DNA of 64,000 bases, from positions 32,001 to 96,000 of IMG/VR virus record IMGVR_UViG_3300021255_000109; one strand, written 5' to 3'. The stretch is from a virus. Its lineage: Duplodnaviria; Caudoviricetes. Shown piece by piece: positions 25,021-47,402 of the stretch (position 1 is the first letter of the stretch; each line of letters begins with the position of its first letter). Both the position numbers and the translations under genes were made by a program. The notes under the pieces are model-generated. The model ran no database searches. It was given only the letters and a program-made list of their open reading frames with translations, and had not been told where the DNA came from.

Positions 25021-26577
25021 TCACTTAATGCAAGCGTAACGCTCAGTATTAAGCTTATCCATCATGAGTTCATATCCGGTCTTACCAGACATGATGGTCT
25101 CAAAGATAGAAGGAGAGAAGCCAGATACGAAGCTTACACGGCCCTGTCCGAGCATCGGAATGTTATTCTGGCGAGCATCAACATTCCAGAAAATCAGATG
25201 AGGCAGTTCAAGTCCGTAACGTGCCCACTTCTTAGCGATACCCTCCATCACAGTCTCGCAGTTGCGAGAATTGATGCTAGAAGTATAACGCCAACCAGAA
25301 GTTGCAGAGTCGAACTCCATATCAGAGATGATAAGGACATTCTTCGGGATATCTTCCTTCTTTACACCAGGACGAGTTGCAGTATCAAGTAGAAGGTCGA
25401 AGGTTGCTTCGATATTAGTGTTCTCACACAGATTAGTGCGATAAATTCTTTCGACCTTATCACAGAAATCTACTCCCTCAGTACGGATGAGCTGAGGACG
25501 AGAAGAGAAACTAATATAGTTATTGGCGAACGGGCCATTGTTATGCTCTGCGCAATACAGACCCAGAGAAATTGCTACGTTGATAGGAGCAGAAGCGCTA
25601 TCACCAGTCATAGAACCAGAGGTATCTACAACAGCAATACCATTGAAAGTTGCATTATTGAAATAATCGGTCAGATTATCCCAATACTTGTTAACCATCA
25701 GACGATTGGTATCGTACAGGTCAACATTGCTCTTATTATAATCATTAAAGCTATACCAACTTCTGTACTGCGGTTTCATGACCTTTACAGCCTCAGCTAC
25801 GCACTCATAAGGATACAGCGCCTTAGCGTTTACCTTAGTAGTGGCGTCCTGTGCGAACTCAGCGTAAGTCTTTACATTTTCGTTCTTCTGGCGCTCAATG
25901 TCATGACGAGCAAAAGCGTTCTTGTAAATCATTCCAGCACGAGAAGGAATCTTATCGAACTCAATCTCGTCCCAGCGATTCTCAGACATTAGTCTCTCCA
26001 GAACGTTGATGCGGGCGCGCAGATTAGAAAGAATCTTTCTATACTGGCGAGAAGTCATGCCCATATGCTGGCGAGTCAGTGCTCCCAGTCTGCGGCTTTC
26101 AGCACTTGAAGTGTTCTCGGACTTCAACCACTTAGCAAGTAAAGACGGAGTCTTGCAGCTGACATCAAGTGCAAGCTGATGAGTCATCAGCGCGAATGCG
26201 TCACCTTCCAGCGGAGTCCCTACGAACTCATACAAGTCATCCCAACGACCAAACTCAGGTACATGGATGAGATTGCGCTTTGCAGCATCTGCGTCCGCAT
26301 TAGCAAGCCAATGCATACACACACGGAAGAATCTACGCTCTCCCTGGCCTCCACGCACATCACGGATATAGAACAGGCACTTTAGTGCATACTCCGGGTT
26401 TTCCGCATATGCGTTCTTAAAGAGGTTAATTACATCTGCGTCACTGCGATTACGATAAGCTGCGCCCATCGCAAACATATCCAGTAAATCAGAACGAGTA
26501 GTCTTATGGGTCACACCACCATTCTCAGTGAGAGTGAAGTTAGTAGCATCATTCAGACCGGACATAAAAGTATTCAT
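25021..26577 (-). CDS. DUF2828-family helical + vWA protein (Ro60/TROVE-like architecture)
   Basis: TENG, RDVRGGQGERRFF, GRWDDL, AKWLKSE, vWA DTSGSM, SDMEFD, FWNV, SGFS. Confidence 0.85.
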   Translation of the reverse strand: MNTFMSGLNDATNFTLTENGGVTHKTTRSDLLDMFAMGAAYRNRSDADVINLFKNAYAENPEYALKCLFYIRDVRGGQGERRFFRVCMHWLANADADAAKRNLIHVPEFGRWDDLYEFVGTPLEGDAFALMTHQLALDVSCKTPSLLAKWLKSENTSSAESRRLGALTRQHMGMTSRQYRKILSNLRARINVLERLMSENRWDEIEFDKIPSRAGMIYKNAFARHDIERQKNENVKTYAEFAQDATTKVNAKALYPYECVAEAVKVMKPQYRSWYSFNDYNKSNVDLYDTNRLMVNKYWDNLTDYFNNATFNGIAVVDTSGSMTGDSASAPINVAISLGLYCAEHNNGPFANNYISFSSRPQLIRTEGVDFCDKVERIYRTNLCENTNIEATFDLLLDTATRPGVKKEDIPKNVLIISDMEFDSATSGWRYTSSINSRNCETVMEGIAKKWARYGLELPHLIFWNVDARQNNIPMLGQGRVSFVSGFSPSIFETIMSGKTGYELMMDKLNTERYACIK

Positions 26578-26626
26578 ATTTTTTTCTCCTTTTTCTCATT
26601 GGTTCCTCTTGGACAAGAGGAAATTA

Positions 26627-26884
26627 TTAAAATCTTAATTCAATGTTACCAAATGAATCAATACGTACTCCTTGAACATTTAATTTACCAGAAGTTCTAT
26701 AACCAGTTTTAACACTACTTGGATAAATATCTCCTCCAAGTGCTTGCAGGTCTTCAGTAAATTGATTCCAAAGATTTTTTATTGCTTTAATTTTTGCTTC
26801 TTGTTTTCTTTTTTTTAAAATTGAATTTAATTCATCATCAGTTACTTCAATTGTAAATTCCATTGATTTTTTCCTTTCTTTCAT
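26627..26884 (-). CDS. Hypothetical protein
   Basis: ORF behind promoter. Confidence 0.5.
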   Translation of the reverse strand: MKERKKSMEFTIEVTDDELNSILKKRKQEAKIKAIKNLWNQFTEDLQALGGDIYPSSVKTGYRTSGKLNVQGVRIDSFGNIELRF

Positions 26885-26970
26885 TTTCTATAAATATTAT
26901 ATCAAATTTTTTAGGAAAAATCAATTTGTTATATTTTTATCTGGTATATACTCTTTTATAAAATTAATAG

Positions 26971-27053
26971 AGGCGCAGGTCAGATTCGAACTGACGATAA
27001 CTTACGTAATTGGTTTTGCAGACCAACGTCTTTAACCACTCGACCACTGCGCC
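26971..27053 (-). tRNA. tRNA-Cys(GCA), long variable region
   Basis: Cloverleaf; TTGGT-CTGCAAA-ACCAA; U73. Confidence 0.85.
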
Positions 27054-27062
27054 TATAATAAG

Positions 27063-27533
27063 TTACCCTTTTTTAAATTCTTGCAAAGGGTAACCGTGGT
27101 CTTTAAACCACTCTTGAATTACTCTTCGTTCTGAGCAGGGATTATTAGTTGCTTCATGGACAATAAATACAATAATAGGATCTTCAGTAAAACCTTCTTT
27201 TTCTTGAACAGCTTTCCCAAGAGAATAGATACGTTTAATAATATCTTGGAAATCTAATTGGTCAAGTTGTGCACGGTAAGCACGCAAAAATGCGCACATA
27301 TGAGGATCGCCATCATTACAATATTCAGGACCTCTGCACAAATGTTCACAAGTTGAACCTGGTACAAATGGTTCTGCACGTAATCCGTTCCAAACACCAT
27401 TTTTATCTTTCCATTGATAGCCTTGATACCTATTATTAAAAAACCATCGAGGATCAAACTGCGCTGTACTTAATGGTATATAATTTGGTTTCATAAATCG
27501 AATTTGATAAAAATAAGAAGTCATTATATACAT
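27063..27533 (-). CDS. DUF488-like hypothetical protein
   Basis: IMTSYF, STA..P.WF, E....CSERR. Confidence 0.6.
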   Translation of the reverse strand: MYIMTSYFYQIRFMKPNYIPLSTAQFDPRWFFNNRYQGYQWKDKNGVWNGLRAEPFVPGSTCEHLCRGPEYCNDGDPHMCAFLRAYRAQLDQLDFQDIIKRIYSLGKAVQEKEGFTEDPIIVFIVHEATNNPCSERRVIQEWFKDHGYPLQEFKKG

Positions 27534-27535
27534 AA

Positions 27536-27751
27536 TTATGAATCTTTTGCTGACTTAAAAAGACCTCTGATTACCATATAAACAATAGTAAAAATAACTA
27601 CTAATGGCCAACTAAAAGCGACTTCCCAACCAAAAATTACAGTAATTCCAATCGCTTTTAATCCCCAGCAAATTACCCATACAACACCTGCATTTATTAA
27701 AAATCCAAATGCGAATCCTAAAAGTATTGTTAAAATTATTTGTGCAAGCAT
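27536..27751 (-). CDS. Small membrane protein
   Basis: Two hydrophobic helices, RBS. Confidence 0.6.
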   Translation of the reverse strand: MLAQIILTILLGFAFGFLINAGVVWVICWGLKAIGITVIFGWEVAFSWPLVVIFTIVYMVIRGLFKSAKDS

Positions 27752-27821
27752 TTCTGCTAAACCTCCCGTAAAAAATGTATAAATAAAAATAAAGGAGCCA
27801 TTTCTGGCTCCTTATTTTAAG

Positions 27822-28160
27822 TTAAAGCCAGAAATTTAACAAGTGTTGGAAACCATCAAAAGGATTTAAGTCTCCGGTTTTCAAGGTCATATGAAAACTA
27901 CCATAATCTTGTATAAATCGATCAAGTAATTCTCGATATTTCTGATTTGCATCACAAAGTGCCTTATAGGCATCTTCCACCTGAGCCGCACGAGCTTTAC
28001 GTTCTTCATTAAGTTTTGCAACTCTCGCTTTTTCATTGGCAATAGCTAATTCTTTTGCTGCTTTTTCTTTTGCGATCGCTTCATCAAATTCTTTTTCAGC
28101 AGCTACACATTCCTCTACGGATGTGTATTCTTTTCCAGTTTTTTCACTTATAATACGCAT
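27822..28160 (-). CDS. Hypothetical coiled-coil protein
   Basis: ORF with GGAGG RBS. Confidence 0.65.
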   Translation of the reverse strand: MRIISEKTGKEYTSVEECVAAEKEFDEAIAKEKAAKELAIANEKARVAKLNEERKARAAQVEDAYKALCDANQKYRELLDRFIQDYGSFHMTLKTGDLNPFDGFQHLLNFWL

Positions 28161-28364
28161 TGTAAAATTCCTCCCTTTTACAAACATATAAAAATTTTAT
28201 GGCACCTTTACTTATGCCATAAATGGCTTTATCAGCTTGATCTGTATAATCGCTAAACGACATAAAGCCAAAATATTAAGGCAAAACAATAGTAAGAAAG
28301 AGAGGGATAAAATAAACTACTATTTTGCCTTAATATATAAAAACCACAGAAAGGAACAACTTCT

Positions 28365-28462
28365 CAAGGCTCGTCACGTAACCCAACAAATACACAGAAG
28401 GAGAAAAAATGTTTCATATTATAGACCTATTGAATATCTTTTACATCTGCTGTATGAGCCTT
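28365..28462 (-). ncRNA. Stem/ACAGCA element E1
   Basis: AAGGCTC-ATACAGCAG ... GAGCCTTG. Confidence 0.6.
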
Positions 28463-28470
28463 TCAAAGAG

Positions 28471-28543
28471 AGCGTCTGACGAGAATCGAACTCGCATCTA
28501 ATGCTTGGAAGGCACTTGTGTTAATCCATTACACCACAAACGC
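28471..28543 (-). tRNA. tRNA-Gly(TCC)
   Basis: Cloverleaf; loop CTTCCAA. Confidence 0.9.
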
Positions 28544-28631
28544 AAATCCGAATTTCTTTTTAATGTTAAAATTCGGAAACAATCATAGGGGGTTATTTTA
28601 GGGGAAAACAGATAAAGGAAATAAGTTATCG

Positions 28632-28714
28632 TGCGGGTAGAGGGACTTGAACCCTCACGGGTCGAACCCTCGGGATTTTAAGTCCCGTGCGTCTGCCGAT
28701 TCCGCCACACCCGC
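28632..28714 (-). tRNA. tRNA-Leu(TAA)
   Basis: Cloverleaf with variable arm; loop CTTAAAA. Confidence 0.92.
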
Positions 28715-28854
28715 ATGTTTTGAAACAATGTTCTGAACAAGCTCGTCTACAGTCTTACCGAAAATAGCTTTACAACAAACATCAACTAATGAATTTTTTA
28801 TTCTATTTACTTTTCTTTAAATAAATACCCATTCATTTCCATTATTTTTCTCCT

Positions 28855-28961
28855 CAAGACGGCTTTTTAGTGCTGGAATCGAACCAGCTTAGATTGTTTT
28901 ACAGACAATGTGCGAACCATACGCTTAATATTCTAAAAAGAATGATTGCTGTATCCGCCTT
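28855..28961 (-). ncRNA. Element E2 enclosing a degenerate tRNA-Tyr(GTA)-like module
   Basis: AAGGCGG-ATACAGCAA ... ATTGT-CTGTAAA-ACAAT ... GCTGG-TTCGATT-CCAGC ... CCGTCTTG. Confidence 0.7.
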
Positions 28962-29228
28962 TCTTTATCTTACATATATATTATATCAAAATTTTTATAA
29001 AAAATCAATTAAAAATCGTCATAATTACTATTTTGTAACTTTTGTTTTTCTTTACGCTTTTGTCTATCTTTCTGTTCAATATTAGATTCTTTGCATAAAT
29101 GGCAATTGCCGCAATTTCTTCTATTATGACAAAACCAACAATAATCATTATCCCAAAAGAACCATTTGGGAGGACTAGGCAATGGTTTTCTTTCACTTTT
29201 ACCCATCTTCAAAGCTCCTTTTATACAG

Positions 29229-29316
29229 CGGGGGTATTGGGATTCGAACCCAAACCGAGGCCCTCAGAAGGCTGGAGTTTTAGAGACTCCTGTGCTGACC
29301 GTTACACTATACCCCT
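29229..29316 (-). tRNA. Amber suppressor tRNA (anticodon CTA), probably Gln
   Basis: GGAGT-CTCTAAA-ACTCC; A1/C72 mismatch, G2-C71, G3-C70, G73; ~20-nt variable region. Confidence 0.9.
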
Positions 29317-29322
29317 ATAAAA

Positions 29323-29412
29323 CGGGGCACCTGGGACTCGAACCCAGACGCCGCTCACACGGTTACTAGCGATTTTCAGGACCGCTGTCTTACCAGTTAG
29401 ACTTAATGCCCC
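29323..29412 (-). tRNA. tRNA-Ser(TGA)
   Basis: Cloverleaf, long variable arm, G73. Confidence 0.88.
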
Positions 29413-29427
29413 AAAAAGGGACTGCTG

Positions 29428-29760
29428 TTACACAGTCGCAGACATTGACTCAAGGTTACGCTTAGCTTCGGTTACTTCCGAACGTGCGTCATTCACATAA
29501 TTTTCCATTTTGTTCAGACGCACAAGAGCCTTAGCAACTTCCTGTTCAGCTTTCTCAAACTCACGCTGGGCACGAGCATATCTCTTATTAGCAATCTTCA
29601 TAGCACAACGTGCGATTGCTAGATTCTGTCCGACTTCTACATCAAACGTATCTCTTGGGTCACACTTGGCCACACCGCGCACAGTCTTTCCAGCATAGGT
29701 AGAAACGGCAACCATCTTGTTCGAACCATCAGTGTAAAACTTGTACTTCTCTTTTAACAT
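29428..29760 (-). CDS. Hypothetical protein
   Basis: GVAKCDPRDTFD..G..LA motif; RBS. Confidence 0.7.
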   Translation of the reverse strand: MLKEKYKFYTDGSNKMVAVSTYAGKTVRGVAKCDPRDTFDVEVGQNLAIARCAMKIANKRYARAQREFEKAEQEVAKALVRLNKMENYVNDARSEVTEAKRNLESMSATV

Positions 29761-29908
29761 TTTTTCTTTCTCCTTTAATTCTTTATATAGTGTGCATCCT
29801 TCTAATCAAAAAGGATCATAAGGATTACATCTTTGTGAGCCACATAATTTGCAATTTTCTGCTACAAACTTTTCAAAATCCATTAGTTTCATTATTTCTA
29901 CCTTTCAG

Positions 29909-29982
29909 AGGGGCAAACGGGGCTCGAACCCGCAATCCCTACCTTGGCAAGGTAGTGCGTTAGCCAATTACGCTATTGCCCC
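29909..29982 (-). tRNA. tRNA-Gly(GCC)
   Basis: Cloverleaf; loop TTGCCAA. Confidence 0.9.
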
Positions 29983-29988
29983 AAAATA

Positions 29989-30312
29989 TTAAACGCGACG
30001 ATTCCATTTTATTATAGCTTCTACTCTTTCATCACATTCAGCCGACATAGCATCACATTCAGTACATTCAATTGCGTAGCTTAAGGTGCCATCATTATAT
30101 TGAAACTCTTCAATTTGCGCTTTTGCTCCACAAAAAGGACAAGACTTTAAATAAGTGTTAATTTTCTTGTCATCCCAGACCAACTGATGATGCCAATTTT
30201 CTGATTCAGATAAAAATTGCTTTACATCTATATTGTACTTCTGTGATAAGTGCTCAATCTTTTGTTCGCTTTCTTTACGCATTTCTTCTATTAAACGGTC
30301 AATATCTATCAT
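29989..30312 (-). CDS. Lar-family (restriction alleviation) Zn-ribbon protein
   Basis: LKSCPFCG...C..C...AI..WNRR. Confidence 0.75.
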   Translation of the reverse strand: MIDIDRLIEEMRKESEQKIEHLSQKYNIDVKQFLSESENWHHQLVWDDKKINTYLKSCPFCGAKAQIEEFQYNDGTLSYAIECTECDAMSAECDERVEAIIKWNRRV

Positions 30313-30344
30313 TATTTTATTCCTCCTTTCTATCTGAAAGAGAG

Positions 30345-30417
30345 AGCCGCCAGAGGGACTTGAACCCCCAACCCAGTGCTTACAAGGCACTTGCGCTAGC
30401 CATTACGCCATGGCGGC
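30345..30417 (-). tRNA. tRNA-Thr(TGT)
   Basis: Cloverleaf; loop CTTGTAA. Confidence 0.92.
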
Positions 30418-30424
30418 ATAATAG

Positions 30425-30497
30425 TGATCCATCGGGGGCTTGAACCCCGAACCCCAAGATTAAGAATCATGTGCTCTACCAATTGAGCTAATGGATC
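30425..30497 (-). tRNA. tRNA-Lys(CTT)
   Basis: Cloverleaf; loop TTCTTAA. Confidence 0.88.
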
Positions 30498-30506
30498 ATA
30501 GACATT

Positions 30507-30707
30507 TTAATTATAACATTCTTTTGTGAAAAAACAATACATAACGTCTACATTATATTTATTTTTTGCTAAAATTGCATTAACTAATTTATATCCTTGC
30601 TCACCCATTTGAGTTAAAGTATTAGGTAAAACATCTGTTGCATAGTTACTGATTACTACAACTGTATTATCATATATTACTTCTTTTTTATTCATGAATT
30701 TCCTCAT
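30507..30707 (-). CDS. Small hypothetical protein
   Basis: L..MG.QGY.LV....Y.FF.K pattern. Confidence 0.55.
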   Translation of the reverse strand: MRKFMNKKEVIYDNTVVVISNYATDVLPNTLTQMGEQGYKLVNAILAKNKYNVDVMYCFFTKECYN

Positions 30708-30709
30708 AG

Positions 30710-31008
30710 TGGACCTGAGGGGAGTCGAACCCCTGTCCGAAATTTATACTTACTATAATTGTTTACGCTGTTTTTTTAAATTTGCTCCACCATCTTATTT
30801 TTAGTGCTAAGAATAAGAAAACTTAAAGTGACAGTTGTTTTCGATCCTCAACAGTTACTACTGACATCTTACTGTGTTTTGGAGGCTGAGCCAAATCAGG
30901 CTGCCATTTGATATTGATATCTTGCGTTTATATTTAGATTTTAGTGATTACGTCACTACACGAGCGCAATTATAATTTTCTAAACCCCGTCGAAACCATT
31001 ACAAGCCC
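30710..31008 (-). ncRNA. ssrA: tmRNA
   Basis: 5' GGGCTTGTAATGGTTTCGACGGGG, 3' GACAGGGGTTCGACTCCCCTCAGGTCCA; resume ATAAAC-GCA; tag (A)ARYQYQMAA-TGA. Confidence 0.9.
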
Positions 31009-31591
31009 GAATATACGAGGTGATCACCTGGCCGCAATTCCTCAGGAGGACTCAATTTATATACCGACTACGCGTAGTAAGGTAACGCCAGCGCCCTTCG
31101 TCGGTTTCTCTTTACCTTACATATATATTATACTAAATTTTTTAGTAAAAATCAATTTTAACATTTTTTGGTTGTAAAAATTCGTGATGGATTTTCTAAT
31201 TCATCTTGGCGATCTTGACATGCGTTGGCGGCCGGAGCCACCGTTCGGTTTTCAAAAAAACCTTGATATAATTAATCAACTTGCTTACTCCATGCACGCT
31301 GAACACTTTTTGCTCGCTACATGCTACCCTAAGAACTTCCTCTTCAGCGATCTTGTTGACGCTGACCGCTTGCCATCAGCTCGTCTTTTTAATTATATCA
31401 AGATTTCTCCATCGTAAAACACAGATAAAGTAAAAGGATAGAACTACGGTTGTAAAGAGCCAACCTCTTTATCCACATTTCCGATTAACACAGTAATTTC
31501 TATCAGCATATTAATATTAGTAAATTCCGCTCTTTCGGTCTAAGTTTTCTCTAAAGTGTATATCGTTTCAACTTTAAATACTTACTTAAAG

Positions 31592-31674
31592 TGGGCCGCG
31601 CTGGAGTCGAACCAGCTGAGTCTCTGACACCTGATTTACAGTCAGGCCTGCTTCCACATACAGTATACCGACCC
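31592..31674 (-). tRNA. tRNA-Tyr(GTA)
   Basis: Cloverleaf with variable arm; loop CTGTAAA. Confidence 0.88.
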
Positions 31675-31691
31675 ATGTAACATAAAAAAAT

Positions 31692-32312
31692 GAATTTGAA
31701 AAAATGTGTGAACCTTCGCTCTACATCCTATATTTCTCGTTTATTAGACTACTGAGGAGATAAGTCTGAGCCTAAGACCCGTCGGTCTTAAACTTCTTAC
31801 CCCACCCGTTTTCCACGGGCACAGGTTCTGCACCTTTAATCTCAGAAGGGATTGCTTACCCTCAACTTTCACCCACCATTCAGATATTTTTATAATAATG
31901 ACCTCAACATTATTCATTCATTATAAATAGAAATTAAAAAGTCTTTGCCTTGGGCTACTTGTGCGTTGACCTTGTCTTATAGTCTTATTACTAAGACATC
32001 ATGGCAAACTTCCTTATTAGCATTTCCTTGGTTTGTGCCAGGCGGCCAGCCTAACACCTAACAAGGATTATTCTCCCACTGGGAGCGTCTATTGCGGAAG
32101 CGACAAGACACCGTCCTAACTTGAGAAATATATTTTGCGCTAACTACCCCCGACACCTTACGTTCGTAAGGTATCATTCTCTTGTCACCAAGAGAATGAT
32201 TCATCTTCATCCTGGCTATCGTCAGGGTAGATATAGTCGACACCTAAGTGTGGTAGTTACCTCAGCACAATGGTATTTGCTCTGCACTGAGTTACACATT
32301 TTTTCAAAGTTC
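31692..32312 (-). ncRNA. Large structured ncRNA, ROOL-like (~620 nt)
   Basis: Terminal pairing TTTGAAAAAATGTGT/ACACATTTTTTCAAA, many hairpins, segments CAAGTAGCCCAA, ATCTGAATGGTGGGTGAAAG, GCTCAGACTTATCTCC recalled as ROOL-like; tRNA-cluster context. Confidence 0.65.
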
Positions 32313-32530
32313 AATAGGAATCAGTCAAAATCAGCATCGCCACGAGAAGGCTTCCTATATGATGCCATGCGGTTTTGAGGTTAACCGTAAACCTTGATAG
32401 TGTGGCTCTCGCCCAAAGGAATACCCGGCCGCCGCACTCCACTCTTTGAATGATGAACTCTTCTAATCCTACATCCTATCATATGTCTATTGGACTTACA
32501 TACAATTTCTAACTGTAAAGCCGAGACAAA

Positions 32531-32611: not shown

Positions 32612-32734
32612 CAAGGCTGCTTACTTTTTGGAGTTATTAATCTTCCAATTGATTTACAATTGCTAAGCAAAAGACAGGACTCGAACCTGCAACGCATAAC
32701 TTGGAATAAAGCTACTATTTGCTGTCACAGCCTT
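32612..32734 (-). ncRNA. Element E3: YrlA-topology permuted tRNA mimic
   Basis: AAGGCTG-TGACAGCAA ... GTTAT, T-arm GCAGG-TTCGAGT-CCTGT, looped acceptor, D-arm AATC-AATTGGAA-GATT, ATAAC ... CAGCCTTG. Confidence 0.72.
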
Positions 32735-32765: not shown

Positions 32766-32887
32766 CAAGACACTTTAGAAAAATGATTATCAGTCATTCG
32801 CGTCAACCATTGCGCCAATTTGCCTAAGGTGGCAAATATCGGATTTGAACCGATACTCTCTAAAAAGAGATTTGCTGTATGTGTCTT
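32766..32887 (-). ncRNA. Element E4: circularly permuted tRNA-Ile(GAT)-like module
   Basis: AAGACAC-ATACAGCAA ... T-arm, ATTTGCC-ACCTTA-GGCAAAT, D-arm, AATGA-CTGATAA-TCATT ... GTGTCTTG. Confidence 0.78.
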
Positions 32888-33438: not shown

Positions 33439-33995
33439 TAGGAGAGATGGGAATCGAACCCATGACCTCAGGTTTGATTCCAAGATGTTATTCATTAATT
33501 ATTTTATTCACCACCTTTTCTAATTCATATTCAGTAGCAAATGTAATTCCTCTAATTTGTCCATTCTTAGGCGGAATAAATCTTAATCTTTTTATCCCAG
33601 AACTACAACATTCATCTACTGGAATTAAATAAGTTTTACCTTCATAAGAAGTCATAAAATAATCAATTTGTTCTTTTGTATAGGCATGTTTTACAAACTT
33701 TCCATTTCTCGTAGTTTTATTTGCGGTATTAAATTCTATATATCCGTTGTCTATATGTGAAGTATTAGCTGTTTTAACTTGAATTTTATAAAATTTATTA
33801 TTTATTTCAACTACGAAATCATAACGTTCACAATCTCCATATGGAGTTAAAACATTATAACCTAATTTTAAAAATGATAACATACATTCTACTTCTGTAA
33901 TATTACCTTTTTGTTTTGACATTAACATATTGTTAATAATCAATGAATAATTCTTTGAATCAGACCTGCACTCTAACCTTCTGAGCTACTCTCCT
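33439..33995 (-). tRNA. tRNA-Ile(GAT) split by a 483-nt insertion (exons 33959-33995 and 33439-33475)
   Basis: 5' half ends CAGGT-CT-GAT, 3' half begins AA-ACCTG; perfect acceptor AGGAGAG/CTCTCCT, A73. Confidence 0.85.
33488..33928 (-). CDS. PD-(D/E)XK homing-type endonuclease (I-Ssp6803I-like family) inside tRNA-Ile
   Basis: KG..TE, P.GD..RYD, KIQVKT, Y...IDYF, YLIP. Confidence 0.85.
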   Translation of the reverse strand: MLMSKQKGNITEVECMLSFLKLGYNVLTPYGDCERYDFVVEINNKFYKIQVKTANTSHIDNGYIEFNTANKTTRNGKFVKHAYTKEQIDYFMTSYEGKTYLIPVDECCSSGIKRLRFIPPKNGQIRGITFATEYELEKVVNKIINE

Positions 33996-34006: not shown

Positions 34007-34087
34007 CAAGGCACTTAAAGTGAGCACATTTGTATAAGTAAAAGTTATATAATTTGCATCCTTGTAAATATTTGCTGTATGTGCCTT
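34007..34087 (-). ncRNA. Element E5
   Basis: AAGGCAC-ATACAGCAA ... GTGCCTTG directly after a promoter. Confidence 0.65.
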
Positions 34088-34272
34088 AAATTTCTTATTT
34101 CTTTATCTTACTAATTATATCAAAATTTTTCTAAAAAATCAACTTGCGGGTACTTTCCGCGACAGCCGCTTAACCAATTCGACTTTCTTAGCTTTCACTA
34201 ATGAGAACCTCACGCATTGTCGGTCTTGTCCTCCCTATCGTTAGGCTTCCACTTGCCGCAAGTTGATTTTAG

Positions 34273-38148: not shown

Positions 38149-38504
38149 TAAAAAATATTGTAGGTTACAACAACCTGTCAAAGTACCTTAAAGGCTTCAT
38201 AACAAAATAGTACAATTTCTACAGTGAGTAACCTACAATATTAACCCCTCTGCGTTTACACTGGCTTGGGAACAGTCCATTGGGCCGCATTAGTTTTTAA
38301 TTTTAAGTAAGGAGTAAAAAGAAGATTTATTGTCCCCGTATTATTTGACAATAAATAGAGATAAAAAACTCTCCTTAACATACAGTTTTGTTGTTTCTAA
38401 ATCTGGCACTATATAGAAAGGATGGCACCTTACAGCCTAACCGCCAATTATTTTTGATTAGGTTTTCCAGTAGTAAGGCTTAATGTATAGTGTCAATTTA
38501 AAAA

Positions 38505-38627
38505 CAAGTCGCTTCGTTTTTTGGTGTACAAAATGGGACTCGAACCCACAATTTTTAAATCCTAAATTTAACGCCATTCCTATTTGGCTATTCGTACGAT
38601 TAACGTAACATTTGCTGTATGCGACTT
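38505..38627 (-). ncRNA. Element E7 enclosing a complete tRNA-Leu(TAG)-like gene with CCA (38522-38597)
   Basis: AAGTCGC-ATACAGCAA ... cloverleaf with TTAAA-TTTAGGA-TTTAA ... ACCA ... GCGACTTG. Confidence 0.75.
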
Positions 38628-38925: not shown

Positions 38926-38991
38926 CAAGACGAATTATAACAAGTTTTGTTTACCGACACAAATTGTTTTAAAAATTGCAGAAATCGTCTT
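38926..38991 (-). ncRNA. Element E8
   Basis: AAGACGA-TTTCTGCAA ... TCGTCTTG directly after a promoter. Confidence 0.55.
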
Positions 38992-39038
38992 TTTTATTTT
39001 CTATAAATATTATATCAAATATTTTATAAAAAATCAAA

Positions 39039-39616: not shown

Positions 39617-39753
39617 AAATTTTTATTTAATATTCCGGAAACTCCTTTACTTCATCATCAATGATTTCAATCTCTTCGATGTAAACCTCTTCACACTGAA
39701 CTTCGCAATCAAATGAATCCCAGTAAAAAATTTCCTTCATTTTTAACTCCTTT

Positions 39754-39819
39754 CAAGACATTTTAGTTTTTCCCAAATTGGATGGCTGAGATAACAAACT
39801 TGTTTGCTGCAAATGTCTT
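39754..39819 (-). ncRNA. Element E9
   Basis: AAGACAT-TTGCAGCAA ... ATGTCTTG directly after a promoter. Confidence 0.6.
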
Positions 39820-39885
39820 TTTTCATTTTCTATAAATATTATATCAAATATTTTATAAAAAATCAATTAAGCATTTTTTTATTCG

Positions 39886-39959: not shown

Positions 39960-39963
39960 AGAG

Positions 39964-40206: not shown

Positions 40207-40237
40207 CTATAAATATATTTGGCAATAATTGCCGAAG

Positions 40238-40310: not shown

Positions 40311-40365
40311 AAATTGACCTACCCTGGTACGCATTGTTAAGAGGCGTGATAGGTACTGATATAAT

Positions 40366-40512
40366 CTAGACACGTAGTTCCTTTTTTTAACGCTATTGCG
40401 CACATCTTTTCAAATTAGAACTATTAAACGTCGATGCTATTTTACAGGGACACGTCCCTATATTCTTCTATCCTAATCTTGAGTTAAAATAGAATTGCTG
40501 TGCCCGTGTCTA
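40366..40512 (-). ncRNA. Element E10
   Basis: TAGACACG-GGCACAGCAA ... CGTGTCTAG. Confidence 0.55.
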
Positions 40513-40560
40513 TGTGATAGTTTAATTTACCGCCGCCGAACTCTATCAAACTAGGCATAA

Positions 40561-40633
40561 TGCGCCAAATGGGATTCGAACCCACGGTCCTACGATTAAA
40601 AGTCGTATGCTTTACCATCTAAGCTATTGGCGC
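40561..40633 (-). tRNA. tRNA-Lys(TTT)
   Basis: Cloverleaf; loop CTTTTAA. Confidence 0.92.
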
Positions 40634-40974
40634 TAATTTTTATGAACCTCTTTATCAAACTAACGTTTTCGCTTCATAACTTTATCTCCTTTTTTCATTT
40701 TCTATATATATTATACTAAATTTTTTCTAAAAAATCAATAGATCAGAAAAATGACTAGATCAACTTCAAACTAGTCATGCCCGACCGTTTGGCTGCAAAC
40801 AACAGGTCTCGGGCTTATCAACGCAACAGACTTGCAGAATCTGACGTGGGAAGCTTTTACCCCATATGCACCTCAGCTCTGTTCTTCCCCACTGTACTAG
40901 GGGTGTCCACCTATTACATATGTTTTTCTTAGGGCTTGCCGCGCTTATCGCGAGTGGAGGCGGATCTCCACTAA

Positions 40975-41047
40975 TACTCAATATAGGACTTGAACCTATG
41001 ACCCTCCGTTTGTAGGACGGACGCTCTCCCAACTGAGCTAATTGAGT
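40975..41047 (-). tRNA. tRNA-Val(TAC)
   Basis: Cloverleaf; loop CCTACAA. Confidence 0.9.
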
Positions 41048-41101
41048 AAAATGCCCTAATTTCTTATTACGATGAACACGCGGGCCGCCAAATCTCGAAA
41101 T

Positions 41102-41172
41102 ATGCTATGCGGGATTCGAACCCTATGCTCCTTCGATTGAGAATCGAACGCTTTACCTGTTAAGCATAGCAT
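41102..41172 (-). tRNA. Atypical tRNA-like gene, anticodon CTC
   Basis: D-, anticodon and T-arms present; acceptor/D junction irregular. Confidence 0.55.
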
Positions 41173-41490
41173 AGAATTAAAATGCGCTAAAAATGAAACT
41201 GCCAAACTCTTTTCAACGCTTTGAAAAAACCATATCGCCAAGATTTTTCCAGGATAGTTTTTCAAGGAGTTCTCCCGTCGCGATTTTGGTGGGAGCTTAT
41301 TACCTGGATTCCAACCAGAACCTCTCTTGCAGTAAAATGTGCCTCCAGGAGGGCTGTTAAGAAACGAGCCTGGATATTTGGACATAAATAGCAGTTTAGG
41401 TTTCCACGACGAACTCTGCCAAACTTGGAGAACGAAACCCATTTCATTGCAAGCAAATCCATGGTAAAAACACTTAAGTTTTTGTTCCAA

Positions 41491-41563
41491 TGACTCCTAC
41501 TGGATTCGAACCAATGACTCTAGCGTGAGAGGCTAGCGGCTTAGACCACTTGCCGAAGGAGCC
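41491..41563 (-). tRNA. tRNA-Glu(CTC)
   Basis: Cloverleaf; loop CTCTCAC. Confidence 0.9.
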
Positions 41564-41567
41564 TTAA

Positions 41568-41640
41568 TAGCCCGTAGGAGAATCGAACTCCTGACTCAAC
41601 CGTGAAAGGGTTGCGGCTTAAACCACTTGCCGAACGGGCC
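41568..41640 (-). tRNA. tRNA-Glu(TTC)
   Basis: Cloverleaf; loop CTTTCAC. Confidence 0.92.
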
Positions 41641-41991
41641 TTTACATCGCTTTTGATAACAGAAGGGAGCGATAACCCCACCTGGTCTTACAACAGTTCA
41701 GTTTAAAGTCCTAACTGGGATGGCAGCAAACTGTAAAGGACTATTAAAGTTATATAAAGTTTTATCTTACTTTGTAAGATTCAACAGTAATCTCACCAAA
41801 CCGGTCTCTAATGAATTCAACTTCTGCATAAGATTTCACAAAAGTCATGTGCTTCTTGTGATGGTCATCGACATAATATACTACATACATCATGTGCGCT
41901 TTCTCCTTCTTAAATTGTGAAATTGATTTTTAGTGACTTTTCATTTTCTATAAATATTATACCAAATTTTTTACAAAAAATCAAACGTGCA

Positions 41992-42282
41992 TCATTTTCG
42001 TTTGCAACATTTTAACCAGTAGCGATAGAACTCCTTCAGCGTAGGATACCGCTTTCTGAGATACTCATTATCTCCTCGCTCCCACTCTGCTTTAGCTTCA
42101 TCCCATGTCCAACGAACGATATAATCATGAATATCATAGGATTCATACACCTTTTTATAGGCGCCACCATTTGGCATGTCTTCTGTATTTCTGACTTTCT
42201 TGTTGGCAAACTTTTTTGATTCTTTTGTGGTACCAGGATTGCCATCAGTATAAACTGGACATCTCTTGTAAGATCGACTCAT
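41992..42282 (-). CDS. Basic hypothetical protein
   Basis: MSRSYK...K..ANKKVR...YKKVY.S.DI.DY pattern; RBS. Confidence 0.7.
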   Translation of the reverse strand: MSRSYKRCPVYTDGNPGTTKESKKFANKKVRNTEDMPNGGAYKKVYESYDIHDYIVRWTWDEAKAEWERGDNEYLRKRYPTLKEFYRYWLKCCKRK

Positions 42283-42312
42283 ACTTTATCCCTCCTGTTT
42301 ATTTTATAGAAG

Positions 42313-42387
42313 CAACCATGACGGGACTCGAACCCGCGACCTCCGAAGTGACAGTCCGGCACTCTGAACCAGCTGAGCTACATGGCT
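42313..42387 (-). tRNA. tRNA-Asp(GTC)
   Basis: Cloverleaf; loop CTGTCAC; G73. Confidence 0.9.
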
Positions 42388-42711
42388 ATATAAAGGCTAT
42401 TTAAAATACTTTCGTACGCTCTGCCCAAAGCTCATATGTCTCCAAACAAAGAGTCTACTCATATTTAAGGCGCCACCCTTTACCCGTTTTCCATTGAGCA
42501 TATTTCCCTCGTAAGGACGCATACACTCACACGCACCCATGGATTGTCAGTTTTTATCCCTATTGTAACAAGCAGGTAAAACTTCCCAGAAACGCTCTCG
42601 ACGACGCGACATCTTTATTCTTATTGAATTAGTGAGGAGCATCGCATACAATCTCTAAGTCACCAGGACCAGAAGTTTAAAGTCTTATGTTCCCTGGATG
42701 TAAAGACTCAA

Positions 42712-42786
42712 TACTCTAGAAGGGATTCGAACCCATACTGTCCTGATCCTAAGTCAGGTGCCTCCTGCCAATTGGGCTACTAGAGC
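42712..42786 (-). tRNA. tRNA-Leu(TAG), short variable loop
   Basis: Cloverleaf; loop CTTAGGA. Confidence 0.88.
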
Positions 42787-43145
42787 ATATTTCAGATAGA
42801 TGGCCGCCACGCCTTTAGCCATGCTCGGATATCTATCATACCCTATTCTCATTCTATCTGAGATGCGATAAAAGTTTAACCTATATCACTTTCAAAGATA
42901 CTTGGCCTAGACCGGGCGCCAAGAACCTGACCACTCTTGCTTAACTCCCCCGATAGTGCTCGCGGCTGTATTCTCGACAGCTGAGATTTACATTGGCTGA
43001 GGTAAATCAACTCACATGTTTGGTTATTGTTCCAATATCAACTACTTACAGGGCCTTCTTACCCAAGCCAGAGAATAGGATTTACGTGTCGTTGCTAGGT
43101 TCTCCACGTGGTTAGTGGGATATGGCTGCTCTACCTATTCTTTTT

Positions 43146-43282
43146 CAAGACGGTTACGACATTTTATGATATATTCCTCGTAAGGCGATTATGAAAAAGC
43201 CTGCATCAACACATAATCCTTTTAAATTGACAGCACCACGCCATATCTGAATTTTTGAATTTATTTGCAGTTCAATCGTCTT
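43146..43282 (-). ncRNA. Element E11
   Basis: AAGACG-ATTGAACTGCAA ... CGTCTTG directly after a promoter. Confidence 0.5.
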
Positions 43283-43796
43283 TTTTATCTTACATAAATA
43301 TTATAACAAATTTTTTCCAAAAAATCAATTTGGCGATTTTTTAATTGATAGCTATAAATACAGCATCATTAGTACCACCATCAGTTATCTCTATAATATC
43401 AAAATCGTTTGGATAATCTGAATCAAAGTTGCCCTGGATATATATTTCTGCGTCAAGGTTAGGAGCTTCTGTCAATAACTTTTGAATTACTTCTCGAACT
43501 GTCATTTTTTCTCCTTTCTTTATCTTACATAAATATTATACCAAATTTTTTACAAAAAATCAAAAGTGCAATTTTTTACTTGAAGTAGCATTGAGAGCAT
43601 CTACTAGTGTTCTTCAAGATTAGTGTTTGGTTTCTCTTCAGAAAAGGAGTGCTTGTTGATATTCGGTCTTTCAGCTCTTCATCTCCGTTACCTTCATCAA
43701 GATATATTTTAAAAGGCTACTTGAGTTTCCTTTCTTTATCTTATATAAATATTATAACAAAAATTTTCCAAAAAATCAATAATGATCTTTTTCTTT

Positions 43797-44057
43797 TTAT
43801 TCAGGAGTATCCTCAGGATCAGGTGTCGCAGTAGTATGAATATAACATTGATTCATAATTAGCCTACCGTCACAAGTTAATAATGTTGCACTGTGTGATG
43901 GTAATGTACTAATTGCCGCAGAGGCTAAAACCTAATGATATTTACTTTCAGCTTGTAATCTCGCTATTGTAGGATTTTCGTCATATGCAGAATGTACAAT
44001 ATTACCATATGTACCATCTTCATATTTTTGAATTTCAATAATATAATATTGGTTCAT
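43797..44057 (-). CDS. Small tail-fibre-associated protein (in-frame TAG)
   Basis: YYIEIQ...AESKYH*VLASAAIS.LP.HSA. Confidence 0.7.
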
Positions 44058-44075
44058 ATTTAATCTCCTTTATAT

Positions 44076-45413
44076 TTAATTATCATATCCAGCAATAAAC
44101 TCCGCATTACCAATAGATGGATTAAAAGTTTTATTTACTAAATCATAAAATCCTGCTTTTTTATCAGTATTGCGTACCACTGGAATATAATATCTAATTA
44201 ATTCATTCTGTTTTTTAATTTTAAAATAATAAAATTTATGGCTTGGTGCGCTAGTATCACCAACACCAGAACCAACACGATTTTTTCCAATTGTAATATT
44301 TAATGCACTCATTTCAGATTCATCTGTTGCAGTAGTAGCAGTGTGTGATTCACCATTATAAGTTGCAGTTGCGCTACCATATTCCATATGTATATCTACT
44401 GGTGCATTAATAAGATGACCTAAACCACCAGCATTTAAGCCTGCACTAGCACCAGCTCGTCTATTATTTAATGTTATCGTATAACGACCATTATCAGAAC
44501 TTCCATGAATAAGTCTCCAACAAGCTTTTGATTCGCCATCATAATTAGCAAAAACATAAGCATATTTTTTATATTCTACTGGTTGTACACGTAAATCAAT
44601 TTGAATTGTAACATCATTACCAGCTACGCCAGTATCAATAAACGATGCTGTACCAACTGTTTGAATATAATCACAGAGTGAATAACCAATTAAATCAGTA
44701 TAAGTCCAATATGTTAAAGATAAATCAATTGCACTAGCACTACTAATAGTATTATTACCACGAACAGTTTTTAATTGTTCTGGTGTTAAAGTATAATAAA
44801 CTGGTGTTGCTGTCGTATCAATAAACTCAATAGGATTAGCATTAAGATAAACTCCTATAGATTCTTTAGTATCACCAACTAAATCAGTTGAAAGTCTTTG
44901 TACAGTTGATTTAGGATAATTCTCGTTTACACGTATACCATTTAAAGTAGCATCAAGAAAAGGCTCTGGATGCAAATAATTACAACATTTAATAGCATTA
45001 TGAGCTAATGAAGTATCTCTATCATCGCCATCCCACCAAAGCCAAAACTAAGTATAACCATTATTAGTTGCAATTGATGTAATACGTGATGTAACATCTT
45101 CTGGCTACGTTCTTAATATATATGGACAAATTAACTATCCAGTTGCTAAGTCAAGACTTCCGCCATAAATTAATGTAGGAAACTAAGTAACTATATTAGT
45201 ATTATTAAAAATTGTAGTAATTTGATTCCAGCCTGAAAAAGTTCTTACATTATCTGGACTTGCTTCTCCAGAACCATGCCATATAGGATCAAAATTAATT
45301 ATACAATGTTTAACTTTTGCGACCAAATCAGCATCAAAACTCATTGATGTATTATAATTAATAGTTCTTAAATGGGGAGTATTTAACAATATCTATCTGC
45401 GTATTAATTCCAT
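44076..45413 (-). CDS. Tail fibre/receptor-binding-like protein (5 in-frame TAGs)
   Basis: TAGs at 45393, 45183, 45135, 45105, 45048; C-terminal YI...G..FIDTG...PV.R....G.YDLV domain. Confidence 0.75.
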
Positions 45414-45415
45414 AT

Positions 45416-47029
45416 TTAAACTACCCATGACATCACCGCCCCATATACTCCATTTAAAATAGAAATTTCATAAGTCCTATTAGTTTCAATTTCAAACCAT
45501 TCTGGCATTTTTACTGTATTTGGCAAAGTTAATACAGTAGGAGTAGAACCAGAAGTAAACAATATGTTACAAATACCAGTAGCAGATGGAGTAAAAGATA
45601 ATGTTAATACTGTGCCACAAATATAACGGTAGTTTCCTTGTGCGGTAATTACTGGATCTGTGCCTGTAACTGTCTATTCAGTTATTCCGCTACCACTTGA
45701 TGATGATCCACTATTAACCATCTAATCTACATATCCTTTAGTAGCAACATCCATATTATTAGTAGGTCCAATACCAACAGTTAATTTACCTGCTAATACT
45801 TCATTACCATTCCAATCTAAAGTTCTTGCATTAGAACGATTTATAATAGTATTATCTTGCGGATCTTGTATTCCATTACCAACAATTTCAATATAAGTTC
45901 CTTTATTATTCGCCTCTGCTGTTGTAGCATTTGTTTCTATTACATTATATTCTCCAAAAACAAACTAAGAGCGTTTTGCCGCTTCAGTTCCATAGCCTTG
46001 ACTATGAGAAAATCTTCCGCTAGCAACAGTTTGAATACCTTCAGCATGTGCGCCAAGACCTGTAGCTTGACTTTGGCCTCCTTCTGCATGCGTATAATAA
46101 CCACTAGCAATAGTATATACCCCTTCTGCGTGTGCAGATTGACCACTCGCTGTTGTATGTTCTCCTTCTGCATGAGATGCTAAACCGCTAGCTTCAGAAT
46201 AATCACCTTCTGCATGAGATGCTGCGCCACTTGCTGTTGTCTAATAACCACTTGTAAATGAATTTTCTCCTTCTGCAATAGTTAATTCTCCAATCGCAAT
46301 AGCTCCATATTCTCTTGCGACATTATTAAGTCCAATAGCTATTGCATTATCTTCAGAAACTGTATTACCTTCACCAATAGCAACAGTAGCTACTCTTGAT
46401 TCTAATTTATTCGCCACACCAATAGAATAGCCAAAATATTTGCTTGTTTCACCATCTCTAGCTATTTGTAAAGGAGTATCTGTATATCCATATATTAAAG
46501 ATTTTGGCAATTCAACTTTTGTATTATTTATCTATTCTACTAAAAACTTATATGTGCCAGCTTCACTTGTTAAAATATCAAGCGTTCCATCATCATCTGT
46601 CTCAACAATTATAAATGGACAATTATCAGTTTTATATGGTATACTAGCGTCAATGTCAATATATAGATTTAAGTTCCCTAAATAAGAATATAATCGCGTT
46701 GAACACCATGTCTTACCATCTAAAATATACTGTTGTGATTCATTCGTTGTAGCATTAGTAAATGTGACTCGAAATTGATAATAGGTTGGCCTTTGAGTTT
46801 TAGTAACAGTTGCTTTTGGACTTTTATATCCTTCTGTTACCGCAGTTGTTACTGTAAATTCTCCTCCATAAACTGTAGTATATGTACTATTAATAATACC
46901 TGCATTACCTATTGCGCTTTTATCAACTTTTATATTATCAATAATATTTACAGCAGTTTCTAAAGTATCCAACTAATCTTTTTTTAATCGAGTTATACCA
47001 TTTGCATCTAAAAATTTTTTAGTTGGCAT
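45416..47029 (-). CDS. Fibre/adhesin-like protein with SHAEG beta-roll repeats (at least 6 in-frame TAGs)
   Basis: MPTKKFLDANG; (S/A)HAEG..T.ASG repeats; S*FVFGEYN; IVGNG...RSNARTLDW. Confidence 0.82.
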
Positions 47030-47238
47030 AAAACACATTTCCTCCTTTTTGTCATATAAAAAAGAGAGGATAATTTCCTCTCTTCAAAATCAAATTGAGT
47101 GCTTTTGGCGGGAGCAGTCTCGTTTGCGCTACGACACCCAGTATTCATACTTTCCGCTTCGCTTCTCACGGAGTTATGAATCCATATGGCAGAACTTCTA
47201 CTGCACTCCCCAAAAACACTCAATTTTTCACTAACTAA

Positions 47239-47309
47239 CAAGAGCGCAAGGACTCGAACCCTGACCTGGAGTTTTGGAGACTCATATGCTACCATTACAC
47301 TACGCCCTT
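47239..47309 (-). tRNA. tRNA-Trp(CCA)
   Basis: Cloverleaf; loop CTCCAAA; G73. Confidence 0.85.
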
Positions 47310-47314
47310 ATATA

Positions 47315-47402
47315 CAAGACGCCGACCTGATTTGTTTCTTTTATTCAGGATTTAATTAATTAATTAATTTTGGCGAAACTAGTAATTGCCGTACAGCGTC
47401 TC
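47315..47402 (-). ncRNA. Element E12
   Basis: GAGACGC-TGTACGGCAA ... GCGTCTTG directly after a promoter. Confidence 0.5.

Follow-up and report, generated by a model that had tools for sequence, protein, structure and literature searches.

Handle-bearing RNAs of a phage tRNA island and their probable Ro60-like protein partner

Ro60 and the Y RNAs make up a classic ribonucleoprotein (RNP) whose roles in bacteria and viruses are partly understood. Described cases include Ro60/Rsr with YrlA, YrlB and Yrn1 of bacteria (Chen et al. 2014, PMC4201824; RF02553) and the Ro60 of Thermus phage phiLo with Yrl1 and Yrl2 (PMC12135203). The Ro-binding motif of YrlA is GNCGAAN0-1G, and the YrlA of M. smegmatis is a substrate of RNase P (PMC4201824); the Ro60 of phiLo is of the canonical kind and binds Y-like RNAs that are encoded upstream of its gene and carry CGAA (PMC12135203). 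We report here on a family of small RNAs, for which we found no published description and which is absent from Rfam 15, in a stretch of 64,000 nucleotides (the window) that makes up bases 32001-96000 of the complete 180.8-kb genome of a gut phage (IMG/VR record IMGVR_UViG_3300021255_000109; direct terminal repeats, 35% G+C). The RNAs share a terminal "handle" and lie on the minus strand of a tRNA island, upstream of a gene for a protein of the DUF2828 and DUF7788 families, whose likeness to Ro60 is already found in annotations and in one preprint. The RNA family, the covariation of its stem and its linkage to the gene are established in this analysis, and it is likely, in our judgement, that the family is Y-RNA-like and has this protein as its Ro60-like partner. 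The Ro/Y-like interpretation put forward in the original prediction, which had been made from the letters of the window alone, is supported, and each of the refuting tests that was run came out in its favour.

Like the loci of Ro60 and its Y RNAs, this one has several small RNAs beside the protein gene and on its strand, with a protein predicted to consist of the same helical-repeat ring and vWA domain with a MIDAS (metal-ion-dependent adhesion site). As in Y RNAs, the closing helix of the 5' and 3' ends adjoins an internal loop whose 5' strand holds a conserved motif, and at least one RNA per genome carries the tRNA mimic composed of T arm, closed acceptor and D arm (here the elements E3 and E4); RNA-repair genes, too, are often nearby. 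We speak of Y-RNA architecture because of this combination of a terminal helix, a single-stranded motif on the 5' side, a variable and often tRNA-mimicking body, several paralogues and a Ro-shaped neighbour gene. Unlike Y RNAs, the handle has the motif CAGCAA in place of GNCGAA/CGAA or GGUCCGA, the copies are many more here (8-11) and are spread through the tRNA island, and the cargo comprises whole tRNAs and three permutations. Since the canonical motif and the Pfam TROVE and Rfam YrlA thresholds are not reached, we regard the system as a sister that would work like Ro/Y RNA and not as a member of the known family. The finding indicates a second, far more widespread Ro/Y-like branch in phages, with partner RNAs that can be predicted from sequence by a simple rule and a cargo that is modular and often a tRNA mimic.

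The handle RNAs of the window

A handle consists of a 7-bp closing helix, three nucleotides, CAGCAA, a variable cargo, the complementary strand and an unpaired G. Copies were scored with two covariance models, R1, trained on the copies of the window only, and R2, which is cross-lineage. R2 finds E9, E5, E8, E4, E1, E2, E7 and E3 at E 8e-9 to 7e-4, and these eight minus-strand elements clearly belong to a single RNA family. E10 and E11, at E ~0.2, are divergent members with longer spacers or with ACUGCAA, a variant that recurs in relatives, while E12 is doubtful, being matched by R1 alone, whose training included E12, and not found by R2 at E<=1.

28365..28462, minus strand: E1, handle RNA of 98 nt, AT-rich cargo, variant CAGCAG (R2 36.6 bits, E 2.7e-6)
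28855..28961, minus strand: E2, handle RNA of 107 nt (R2 E 6.4e-6), with a partial Rfam tRNA match at 28872-28925 (24 bits)
32612..32734, minus strand: E3, handle RNA of 123 nt (R2 E 6.6e-4)
32766..32887, minus strand: E4, handle RNA of 122 nt (R2 E 2.8e-7)
34007..34087, minus strand: E5, handle RNA of 81 nt, AT-rich hairpin cargo, with a promoter (R2 E 3.1e-8)
38505..38627, minus strand: E7, handle RNA of 123 nt (R2 E 4.6e-5)
38926..38991, minus strand: E8, handle RNA of 66 nt, variant CUGCAA, with a promoter (R2 E 2.1e-7)
39754..39819, minus strand: E9, handle RNA of 66 nt, with a promoter (R2 E 7.9e-9)
40366..40512, minus strand: E10, divergent member of 147 nt (R1 57.3 bits, E10 being in the R1 training set; R2 E 0.22)
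43146..43282, minus strand: E11, divergent member of 137 nt, 6-bp stem, ACUGCAA after a longer spacer, with a promoter (R2 E 0.18)
47315..47402, minus strand: E12, doubtful member of 88 nt, GAGACGC/GCGUCUU stem with a wobble pair, CGGCAA, 4-nt spacer, with a promoter

The original prediction had counted twelve elements. Eleven of them lie on the minus strand where it placed them and have the stems it described, the standing of E12 being doubtful as said; the twelfth, E6, which had been read as an inside-out copy with its motif permuted into an anticodon arm, was rejected as a member, since it is matched by none of the models, the two arms ascribed to it lack complementarity and shuffled sequences fold as well as it does (z -0.44).

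The covariation of the terminal stem was borne out both in the window and beyond it. In an alignment of eleven elements (A1) four of the seven pairs change on both sides, and the helix is 98.7% paired, a percentage that is not independent evidence because the rows were picked partly for having the stem; the observed score was not matched in any of 500 shuffles, and a register shifted by 1-3 columns gives pairing in 29-52% of cells. In a cross-lineage alignment of 32 sequences every one of the seven pairs has changed on both sides; there the stems of other lineages are very different (GGAAUC, AGAGAGC, UGGACGC, AUGGUAC, AGACCNN) and the 3-nt spacer, CAGCAA and the final G are retained. A logo of 133 copies consists of the 7-bp helix, AUA, CAGCAA and a U-rich stretch, followed on the 3' side by an A/U-rich stretch, the complementary strand and an invariant G; the first base pair of the helix varies (A-U, U-A, G-C), and C11, within CAGCAA, is 100% conserved even though the scan did not require it.

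The bare word ACAGCAA is not enriched in the window (14 observed against 10 expected), so that the signal is the composite and not the word. Under a strict rule (7 bp, 3 nt, CAGCAA, and the complement and G within 200 nt) the whole genome has six sites on both strands taken together, all of them in the island and on the minus strand, with none elsewhere. A loose scan for the 5' motif over the whole 180.8 kb gave 98 sites; ten, all of them on the island's minus strand, have the full 7-bp 3' complement plus G, and three more, outside the island, have a complement with G-U pairs and are probably due to chance.

The cargoes are much as had been described before. E7 encloses a complete tRNA-Leu(UAG) with encoded CCA (ARAGORN 38522-38597; Rfam tRNA 65.3 bits). 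In E2, which has the partial tRNA match, the closing stem stands at the acceptor position, and the cargo is made up of a small hairpin, a D-like arm, a GUA anticodon arm and a T arm. E3, with a weak YrlA match, has the order T arm, closed acceptor-like hairpin and D-like part, which is the YrlA topology; in E4 the cargo is tRNA-like and circularly permuted, with its opening in the variable region, and runs from the T arm through a closed acceptor hairpin of 7 bp and the D arm to a GAU anticodon arm. The stem of E1 is AAGGCUC/GAGCCUU, followed by G, and that of E10 has 8 bp (UAGACACG/CGUGUCUA), with a 5-nt spacer ahead of CAGCAA. The subclass of E11, ~150 nt long, recurs in related phages, similar copies being found at L045:5284, L001:2121 and L077:1080 of the related loci described below.

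Across the wider family a T arm is present in 74 of 160 copies, and about half of the family has no tRNA part, the remaining class of cargo being plain AT-rich hairpins of 55-100 nt. Among nine homologues of the E4-type cargo, from nine phages, 16 of the 28 pairs covary, with all four tRNA-like helices included, and 13 of 18 do so among ten homologues of the E2 type. The YrlA-type order of T arm, acceptor and D arm is found also in a copy of Faith1 (L083:11533-11655) and in one of KP13-16 (15915-16039). Some permuted cargoes of related phages (L034:7028-7159, L011:527-659, L025:3314-3450) carry NCCA (discriminator and CCA) in the loop closing the acceptor stem, and these look as if derived from tandem tRNA genes. 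The window is notable for its copy number, for the spread of the copies across the tRNA island with promoters of their own and for the variety of cargo topologies; handle RNAs explain many of the "pseudo-tRNA" and "tRNA-OTHER" calls in phage tRNA clusters.

Six elements (E2, E5, E8, E9, E11 and E12) begin ~19-27 nt past a strong and well conserved TTGATTTTTT-N-TATAAT promoter, as located by a regular-expression scan of the genome.

28980..29008, minus strand: promoter ahead of E2, TTGAUU-N17-TATAAT class; the -35 box starts at 29008 and E2 starts 19 nt after
~34114-34142, minus strand: promoter ahead of E5; the -35 box starts at 34142
~39009-39037, minus strand: promoter ahead of E8; the -35 box starts at 39037
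~39838-39866, minus strand: promoter ahead of E9; the -35 box starts at 39866
~43300-43328, minus strand: promoter ahead of E11; the -35 box starts at 43328
~47423-47451, minus strand: promoter ahead of E12; the -35 box starts at 47451

About 25 other promoters of the same class run straight into a ribosome-binding site (RBS) with no handle between, and E1, E3, E4, E7 and E10 each lack their own promoter. Immediately after E2 and E9 come an RBS and ATG (28815-28855 and 39714-39754, minus strand), the frame having fewer than ~40 codons and ending before the next tRNA.

The DUF2828/DUF7788 protein and its linkage to the RNAs

25021..26577, minus strand: gene of the 518-amino-acid DUF2828 and DUF7788 protein, at the downstream end of the island; predicted Ro60-like ring plus vWA domain with MIDAS

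The protein matches PF11443 (E 5.6e-31) and PF25043 (E 3.4e-39) and corresponds to phrog_850, "RNA-binding protein" (E 8.6e-126). It is predicted to have the ring-plus-vWA fold of Ro60. In an AlphaFold model built from 27 homologues (pLDDT 74, pTM 0.71) the top 12 Foldseek matches are all Ro60/TROVE (E 2e-6 to 3e-4), and VIA-align places residues 11-500 of the model on residues 12-535 of Xenopus Ro60 (2i91_B), covering both the ring and the vWA domain (Z 18.1; root-mean-square deviation 4.6 A over 402 residues). The ten best VIA-align matches are all Ro60/Rsr, with vWA-only matches from Z ~10.7, so the comparison with Ro60 proposed beforehand came out as expected. The predicted MIDAS residues D318, S320, S322, T387 and D419 (DxSxS, T, D) are invariant in alignment A3. 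Homologues of 28-40% identity occur in 705 cultured phage records, some of them annotated as "Ro-like RNA binding protein", and metagenomic homologues amount to thousands of proteins; a full-text search of the literature found no function described for DUF2828.

Co-occurrence of the handle with DUF2828, which the original prediction had named as a check, is strong and specific to the strand of the gene, and it holds in sequences outside the training of the models. With the DUF2828 protein as query, 197 related IMG/VR loci were obtained, of which 80 were kept. R1 gives 217 matches in 72 sources (the window and 71 loci), every one of them on the strand of the DUF2828 gene and upstream of it. By a model-free rule the same loci have 201 copies on the gene strand against 7 on the opposite one, while the word CAGCAA is equally common on both, and the corresponding counts in genome contigs are 34 against 2 and 56 against 3.

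Handles accompany the DUF2828 gene in all 14 of the cultured phages sampled, and in 12 of them are on its strand and adjacent to it; they abut the gene in Bacillus phage PBC2, Felixounavirus EC6, Mycobacterium phage Faith1, Listeria phage List-36, Staphylococcus phage S-CoN_Ph7, Campylobacter phage CPX and Enterococcus phage phiSHEF13. The window-trained model finds eight copies in the tRNA array of PBC2 just before the gene and three in S-CoN_Ph7 just after it, with weaker matches in EC6 and Faith1, and rule-perfect copies adjoin the gene in List-36, CPX and phiSHEF13, whose flanks were read directly. Whole-record scans of five of these phages (551 kb) gave no match away from the gene at E<=0.01; a whole-record scan of CPX with R2 was empty though two rule-perfect copies lie just before the gene, so such a scan can miss copies and an empty result is weak evidence. 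Phages from outside the R2 training likewise have all their copies on the strand of the gene: Klebsiella phage KP13-16 (four, the first 93 nt after the gene), Aeromonas phage LAh_9 (five, just before it), Pseudomonas phage Astolliot (two, 3.4 kb away), Citrobacter phage Ci1 (three, 9.5 kb away) and Vibrio phage VS1 (one, 7 kb away). No handle match at E<=0.01 was found in 898 kb of five tRNA-bearing phages that have no DUF2828 gene, T4, T5, Bxz1, S-RIM8 and CcrColossus, two of which we take to encode a canonical Ro60.

The linkage extends to distant loci from bacterial isolates and metagenome-assembled genomes, in which the protein is 29-46% identical: 25 of 27 have matches, 60 in total and all on the strand of the gene, mostly no more than 400 nt upstream of it, the isolates including Thermoactinomyces, Halobacillus and Enterococcus. 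Other phages have RNA-repair or band-7 genes within a few kb of the DUF2828 gene, namely RtcB in List-36 and an RNA ligase in 7t3 and LAh_9, and in this they resemble the bacterial rsr-Y RNA-rtcBA operon; a search of the present phage genome for RtcB found nothing.

L084 (Listeria phage List-36), 12852-14063: RtcB
L090 (Salmonella phage 7t3), 6432-7640: RNA ligase
L093 (Aeromonas phage LAh_9), 5516-6424 and 9064 onwards: band-7/SPFH protein and RNA ligase 2

Weighing the explanations

If the RNAs are Y-RNA-like, each would be made from its own phage promoter or within a tRNA polycistron, and its ends would pair in the 7-bp helix, with the single-stranded AUA-CAGCAA right after the 5' strand, opposite an A/U-rich 3' strand, and one unpaired G past the helix. 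The linkage to the gene suggests that the handle binds the Ro-like ring, in the way that Y RNAs attach to Ro60 by their conserved 5'-strand motif. What would then project from the protein is the exchangeable cargo, which is either a plain hairpin, an entire tRNA or a tRNA body with its opening in the acceptor, the variable loop or the anticodon. As to the role of such a particle, we can speculate that it may offer tRNA look-alikes to enzymes that act on tRNAs, such as host anticodon nucleases, other defence nucleases, PNPase-type exonucleases or repair enzymes, and in this way help the phage.

Several observations weigh against this. The canonical motif (GNCGAAN0-1G in bacteria, GGUCCGA in animals) is absent from the handles, whose 5'-strand motif is AUA-CAGCAA, in agreement with the earlier caution that this is not the canonical Ro60-binding element, and the gathering score of Rfam YrlA (69) is not reached, the values being 26.4 bits for E3 (E 0.064) and 37.8 bits for a copy of PBC2, with no match for other copies. 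Neither at gathering thresholds nor at E<=5 does any Rfam family cover the handle, weak YrlA and partial tRNA matches being to cargo only; the check for an already characterised family, which the original prediction had named as one that could refute it, came out in its favour. Pfam TROVE (PF05731) has no match in the whole phage genome at E<=10, at which control genomes were matched, and a PDB sequence profile search with the protein alignment came back empty; the likeness to Ro60 is therefore one of fold only, in a structure model of medium confidence (pLDDT 74). In this phage the RNAs span 19 kb, from 1.8 to 21 kb upstream of the gene on the same strand, so the linkage within the genome is loose and rests on the comparative data. 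Aeromonas phage PX29 has weak matches only, and in the 349-kb Salmonella phage 7t3 four matches (MK773491.1, 3454-12799) lie ~160-170 kb from the DUF2828 gene, the sole sampled case in which RNA and gene are not neighbours. Finally, handle and gene might be linked because both go with tRNA clusters; this is countered by phages that have a single tRNA or none in the vicinity, and there are few or no tRNAs near handle and gene in S-CoN_Ph7, Faith1 and many bacterial loci.

It is unlikely that the handle serves the maturation of transcripts from the tRNA island, as tRNA-like punctuation (a helix of acceptor length, 7 bp, and an unpaired discriminator-like G) at which RNase P, RNase Z or another host nuclease would cut them apart, with no link to the DUF2828 protein. 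Such a signal would suit a stem of acceptor length followed by one unpaired base, copies that lie 4-13 nt apart like tRNAs in arrays, the E2-type stem at the acceptor position next to a T arm, the six copies that begin transcripts and the cleavage of M. smegmatis YrlA by RNase P mentioned above; but it leaves the invariant single-stranded CAGCAA unexplained, a T arm is missing from half of the copies, no handle occurs in the tRNA arrays of T4, T5, Bxz1, S-RIM8 and CcrColossus, and handles abut DUF2828 genes where tRNAs are few or missing. It is also quite unlikely that the cargo-bearing copies are tRNA genes in permuted or split form, like the permuted ones of Cyanidioschyzon merolae, from which functional tRNAs would arise with the handle joining their halves or holding them together. 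In E4-type cargo, as in the permuted genes of C. merolae, the tRNA 3' half precedes the 5' half via the acceptor stem; this cargo keeps all four tRNA helices, covarying, with an intact anticodon loop, and the acceptor loop of some relatives has NCCA (L034:7028, L011:527, L025:3314). The ends, however, form a plain continuous helix of 7-8 bp next to CAGCAA and not a bulge-helix-bulge, the handle stays attached, the acceptor hairpins are short-looped (often closed by 3-6 nt) and usually without CCA, the genome has no RtcB, and the anticodons duplicate those of the ordinary tRNAs of this phage; the idea moreover fits a minority of cargoes, with about half of the family lacking a tRNA part. The permuted order of E4-type cargo is better explained as a YrlA-like mimic.

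The original prediction had itself named a leader or processing signal as the alternative. That six elements start ~19-27 nt past consensus promoters stood up, and in E2 and E9 an RBS and ATG come right after the element, as would be expected of a cis-acting 5' leader of phage middle transcripts that serves stability, antitermination or translational control. Yet ~25 promoters of the same class have no handle, five elements have no promoter, and copies elsewhere form tandem, promoter-less arrays that abut the gene with no gene following each copy; a leader would also leave the link to one protein family across phyla unexplained, and we consider it very unlikely. The terminal 7-bp inverted repeats, variable interiors and many copies might also recall elements that act as DNA, whether miniature transposons or recombination sites. 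We regard these as excluded, because the copies keep to one strand, on which the gene lies and transcription runs (201 against 7), and changes in the stem compensate each other and allow for G-U; they have no transposase or integrase linked to them, and the interiors are structured RNA. The Y-RNA-like family with a Ro60-like partner thus remains the likely explanation named at the outset.

Possible relatives and function, and the surrounding island

The Ro-like gp53 of phage LeBron is toxic on overexpression (PMC13148394). The best clue to function comes from gp130 of phage Bas63 and its countering of Ppl: this protein is Ro60-like, is encoded directly upstream of tRNA genes and is needed for normal plaques on Ppl-carrying hosts, and its authors guessed that some of the Bas63 "tRNAs" are Y RNAs, the partner RNAs being left unnamed (preprint 10.1101/2024.10.10.617714). 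EC6 has four handle RNAs at exactly that site, in a stretch that is conserved in at least 235 related records, FelixO1 included. We take Bas63 to be of the same genus as EC6, Felixounavirus, and genus and gene position together suggest that gp130 belongs to the DUF2828 family. The handle RNAs would accordingly offer a concrete candidate RNA partner for a protein that has been shown genetically to counter bacterial defence in a Felixounavirus. Model phages that can be cultured on E. coli, Salmonella, Bacillus, Listeria, Staphylococcus and Mycobacterium carry the system, so that the hypothesis is directly testable.

A likeness of another sort is found in the Class I RNAs of dictyostelids (social amoebae), which are 42-65 nt long and have a short end-joining helix, an 11-nt motif adjoining its 5' strand and an otherwise variable sequence (Kjellin et al. 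2021, PMC7919456). Their motif is CCTTACAGCAA, in sequences of the form GTTGAC-CTT-ACAGCAA...GTCAAC-TG (PMC7919456, supplement). Their design is like that of the handles, with a conserved motif, here CCUUACAGCAA, right after the 5' helix strand, a variable interior, a C-U-G 3' end, many copies per genome and a length of ~60 nt; by eye, the published sequences (PMC7919456, supplementary files 19, 20, 46 and 48) agree with the handles in the ACAGCAA core and where it lies and in the C-U-G 3' end, and differ from them in the first four positions of the motif. Unlike the handles, Class I RNAs are eukaryotic and nuclear-encoded, have their own DUSE promoter and a 6-bp helix followed by UG, and their only known direct binder is the RNA-recognition-motif protein Rnp1A/Cibp. 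The DUSE element, ~60 nt upstream, was not found here, where the promoters are of the bacterial sigma-70 type or absent. Class I RNAs are reported to be absent outside Dictyostelia (PMC7919456); supplementary file 56 of that paper holds Arabidopsis and Capsaspora candidates with the same grammar of stem, ACAGCAA, stem and UG, which were dismissed there for want of an amoebal promoter motif. A search of a protein atlas gave viral DUF2828 clusters only, which says nothing either way about dictyostelids.

A broader reading, which we offer tentatively as possible and not as probable, is that the ACAGCAA-handle RNA and the DUF2828 Ro-like ring are an ancient RNP found across phages, bacteria, giant viruses and eukaryotes, the eukaryotic members being the Dictyostelium Class I RNAs and the look-alikes of plants and Capsaspora, and that in phages it is a modular platform for the display of exchangeable tRNA-shaped cargo, by which nuclease defences such as Ppl, tRNA-directed or other, are disarmed. 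The handle RNAs offer a lead, open to testing, as to what the dictyostelid Class I RNAs do.

The island in which the handle RNAs lie occupies ~26.9-48.4 kb of the window, on the minus strand, and comprises 33 tRNA genes together with a tmRNA, a ROOL RNA and an abiF RNA, these last three being interspersed among tRNAs and handle RNAs. When the island was compared by megablast with 50,697 phage records, only tRNA-sized matches came up, so the phage has no close relative among cultured phages.

30707-31008, minus strand: tmRNA (93 bits)
31691-32315, minus strand: ROOL RNA (341 bits)
40317-40353, minus strand: abiF RNA (39.1 bits, barely above threshold)
44076-45428, minus strand: long frame with 5 in-frame TAGs
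45416-47038, minus strand: long frame with 6 in-frame TAGs
47453-48295, minus strand: long frame with 2 in-frame TAGs

Several long frames of the island stay open solely if TAG is read as a residue, and a tRNA with a CUA anticodon is present at 29228-29316; TAG is probably reassigned by this phage. Directly downstream of E5 is an open reading frame for a PD-(D/E)XK endonuclease (33488-33943, minus strand; PF11645, E 5.6e-29). At 38242-38296 on the minus strand, within the tRNA island, a match to the type-P1 twister ribozyme (47.7 bits, E 5e-8; short of Rfam's threshold, 67.2) could represent a self-cleaving ribozyme. The minus strand of the whole genome has two sharply distinct classes of promoter, TTGACAA-N-TGnTATAAT, which is clustered at 60-81 kb of the window's numbering, and TTGATTTTTT-N-TATAATATTTATAGAAAAT, which has a conserved leader and is spread over 1-60 kb; this suggests two temporal classes.

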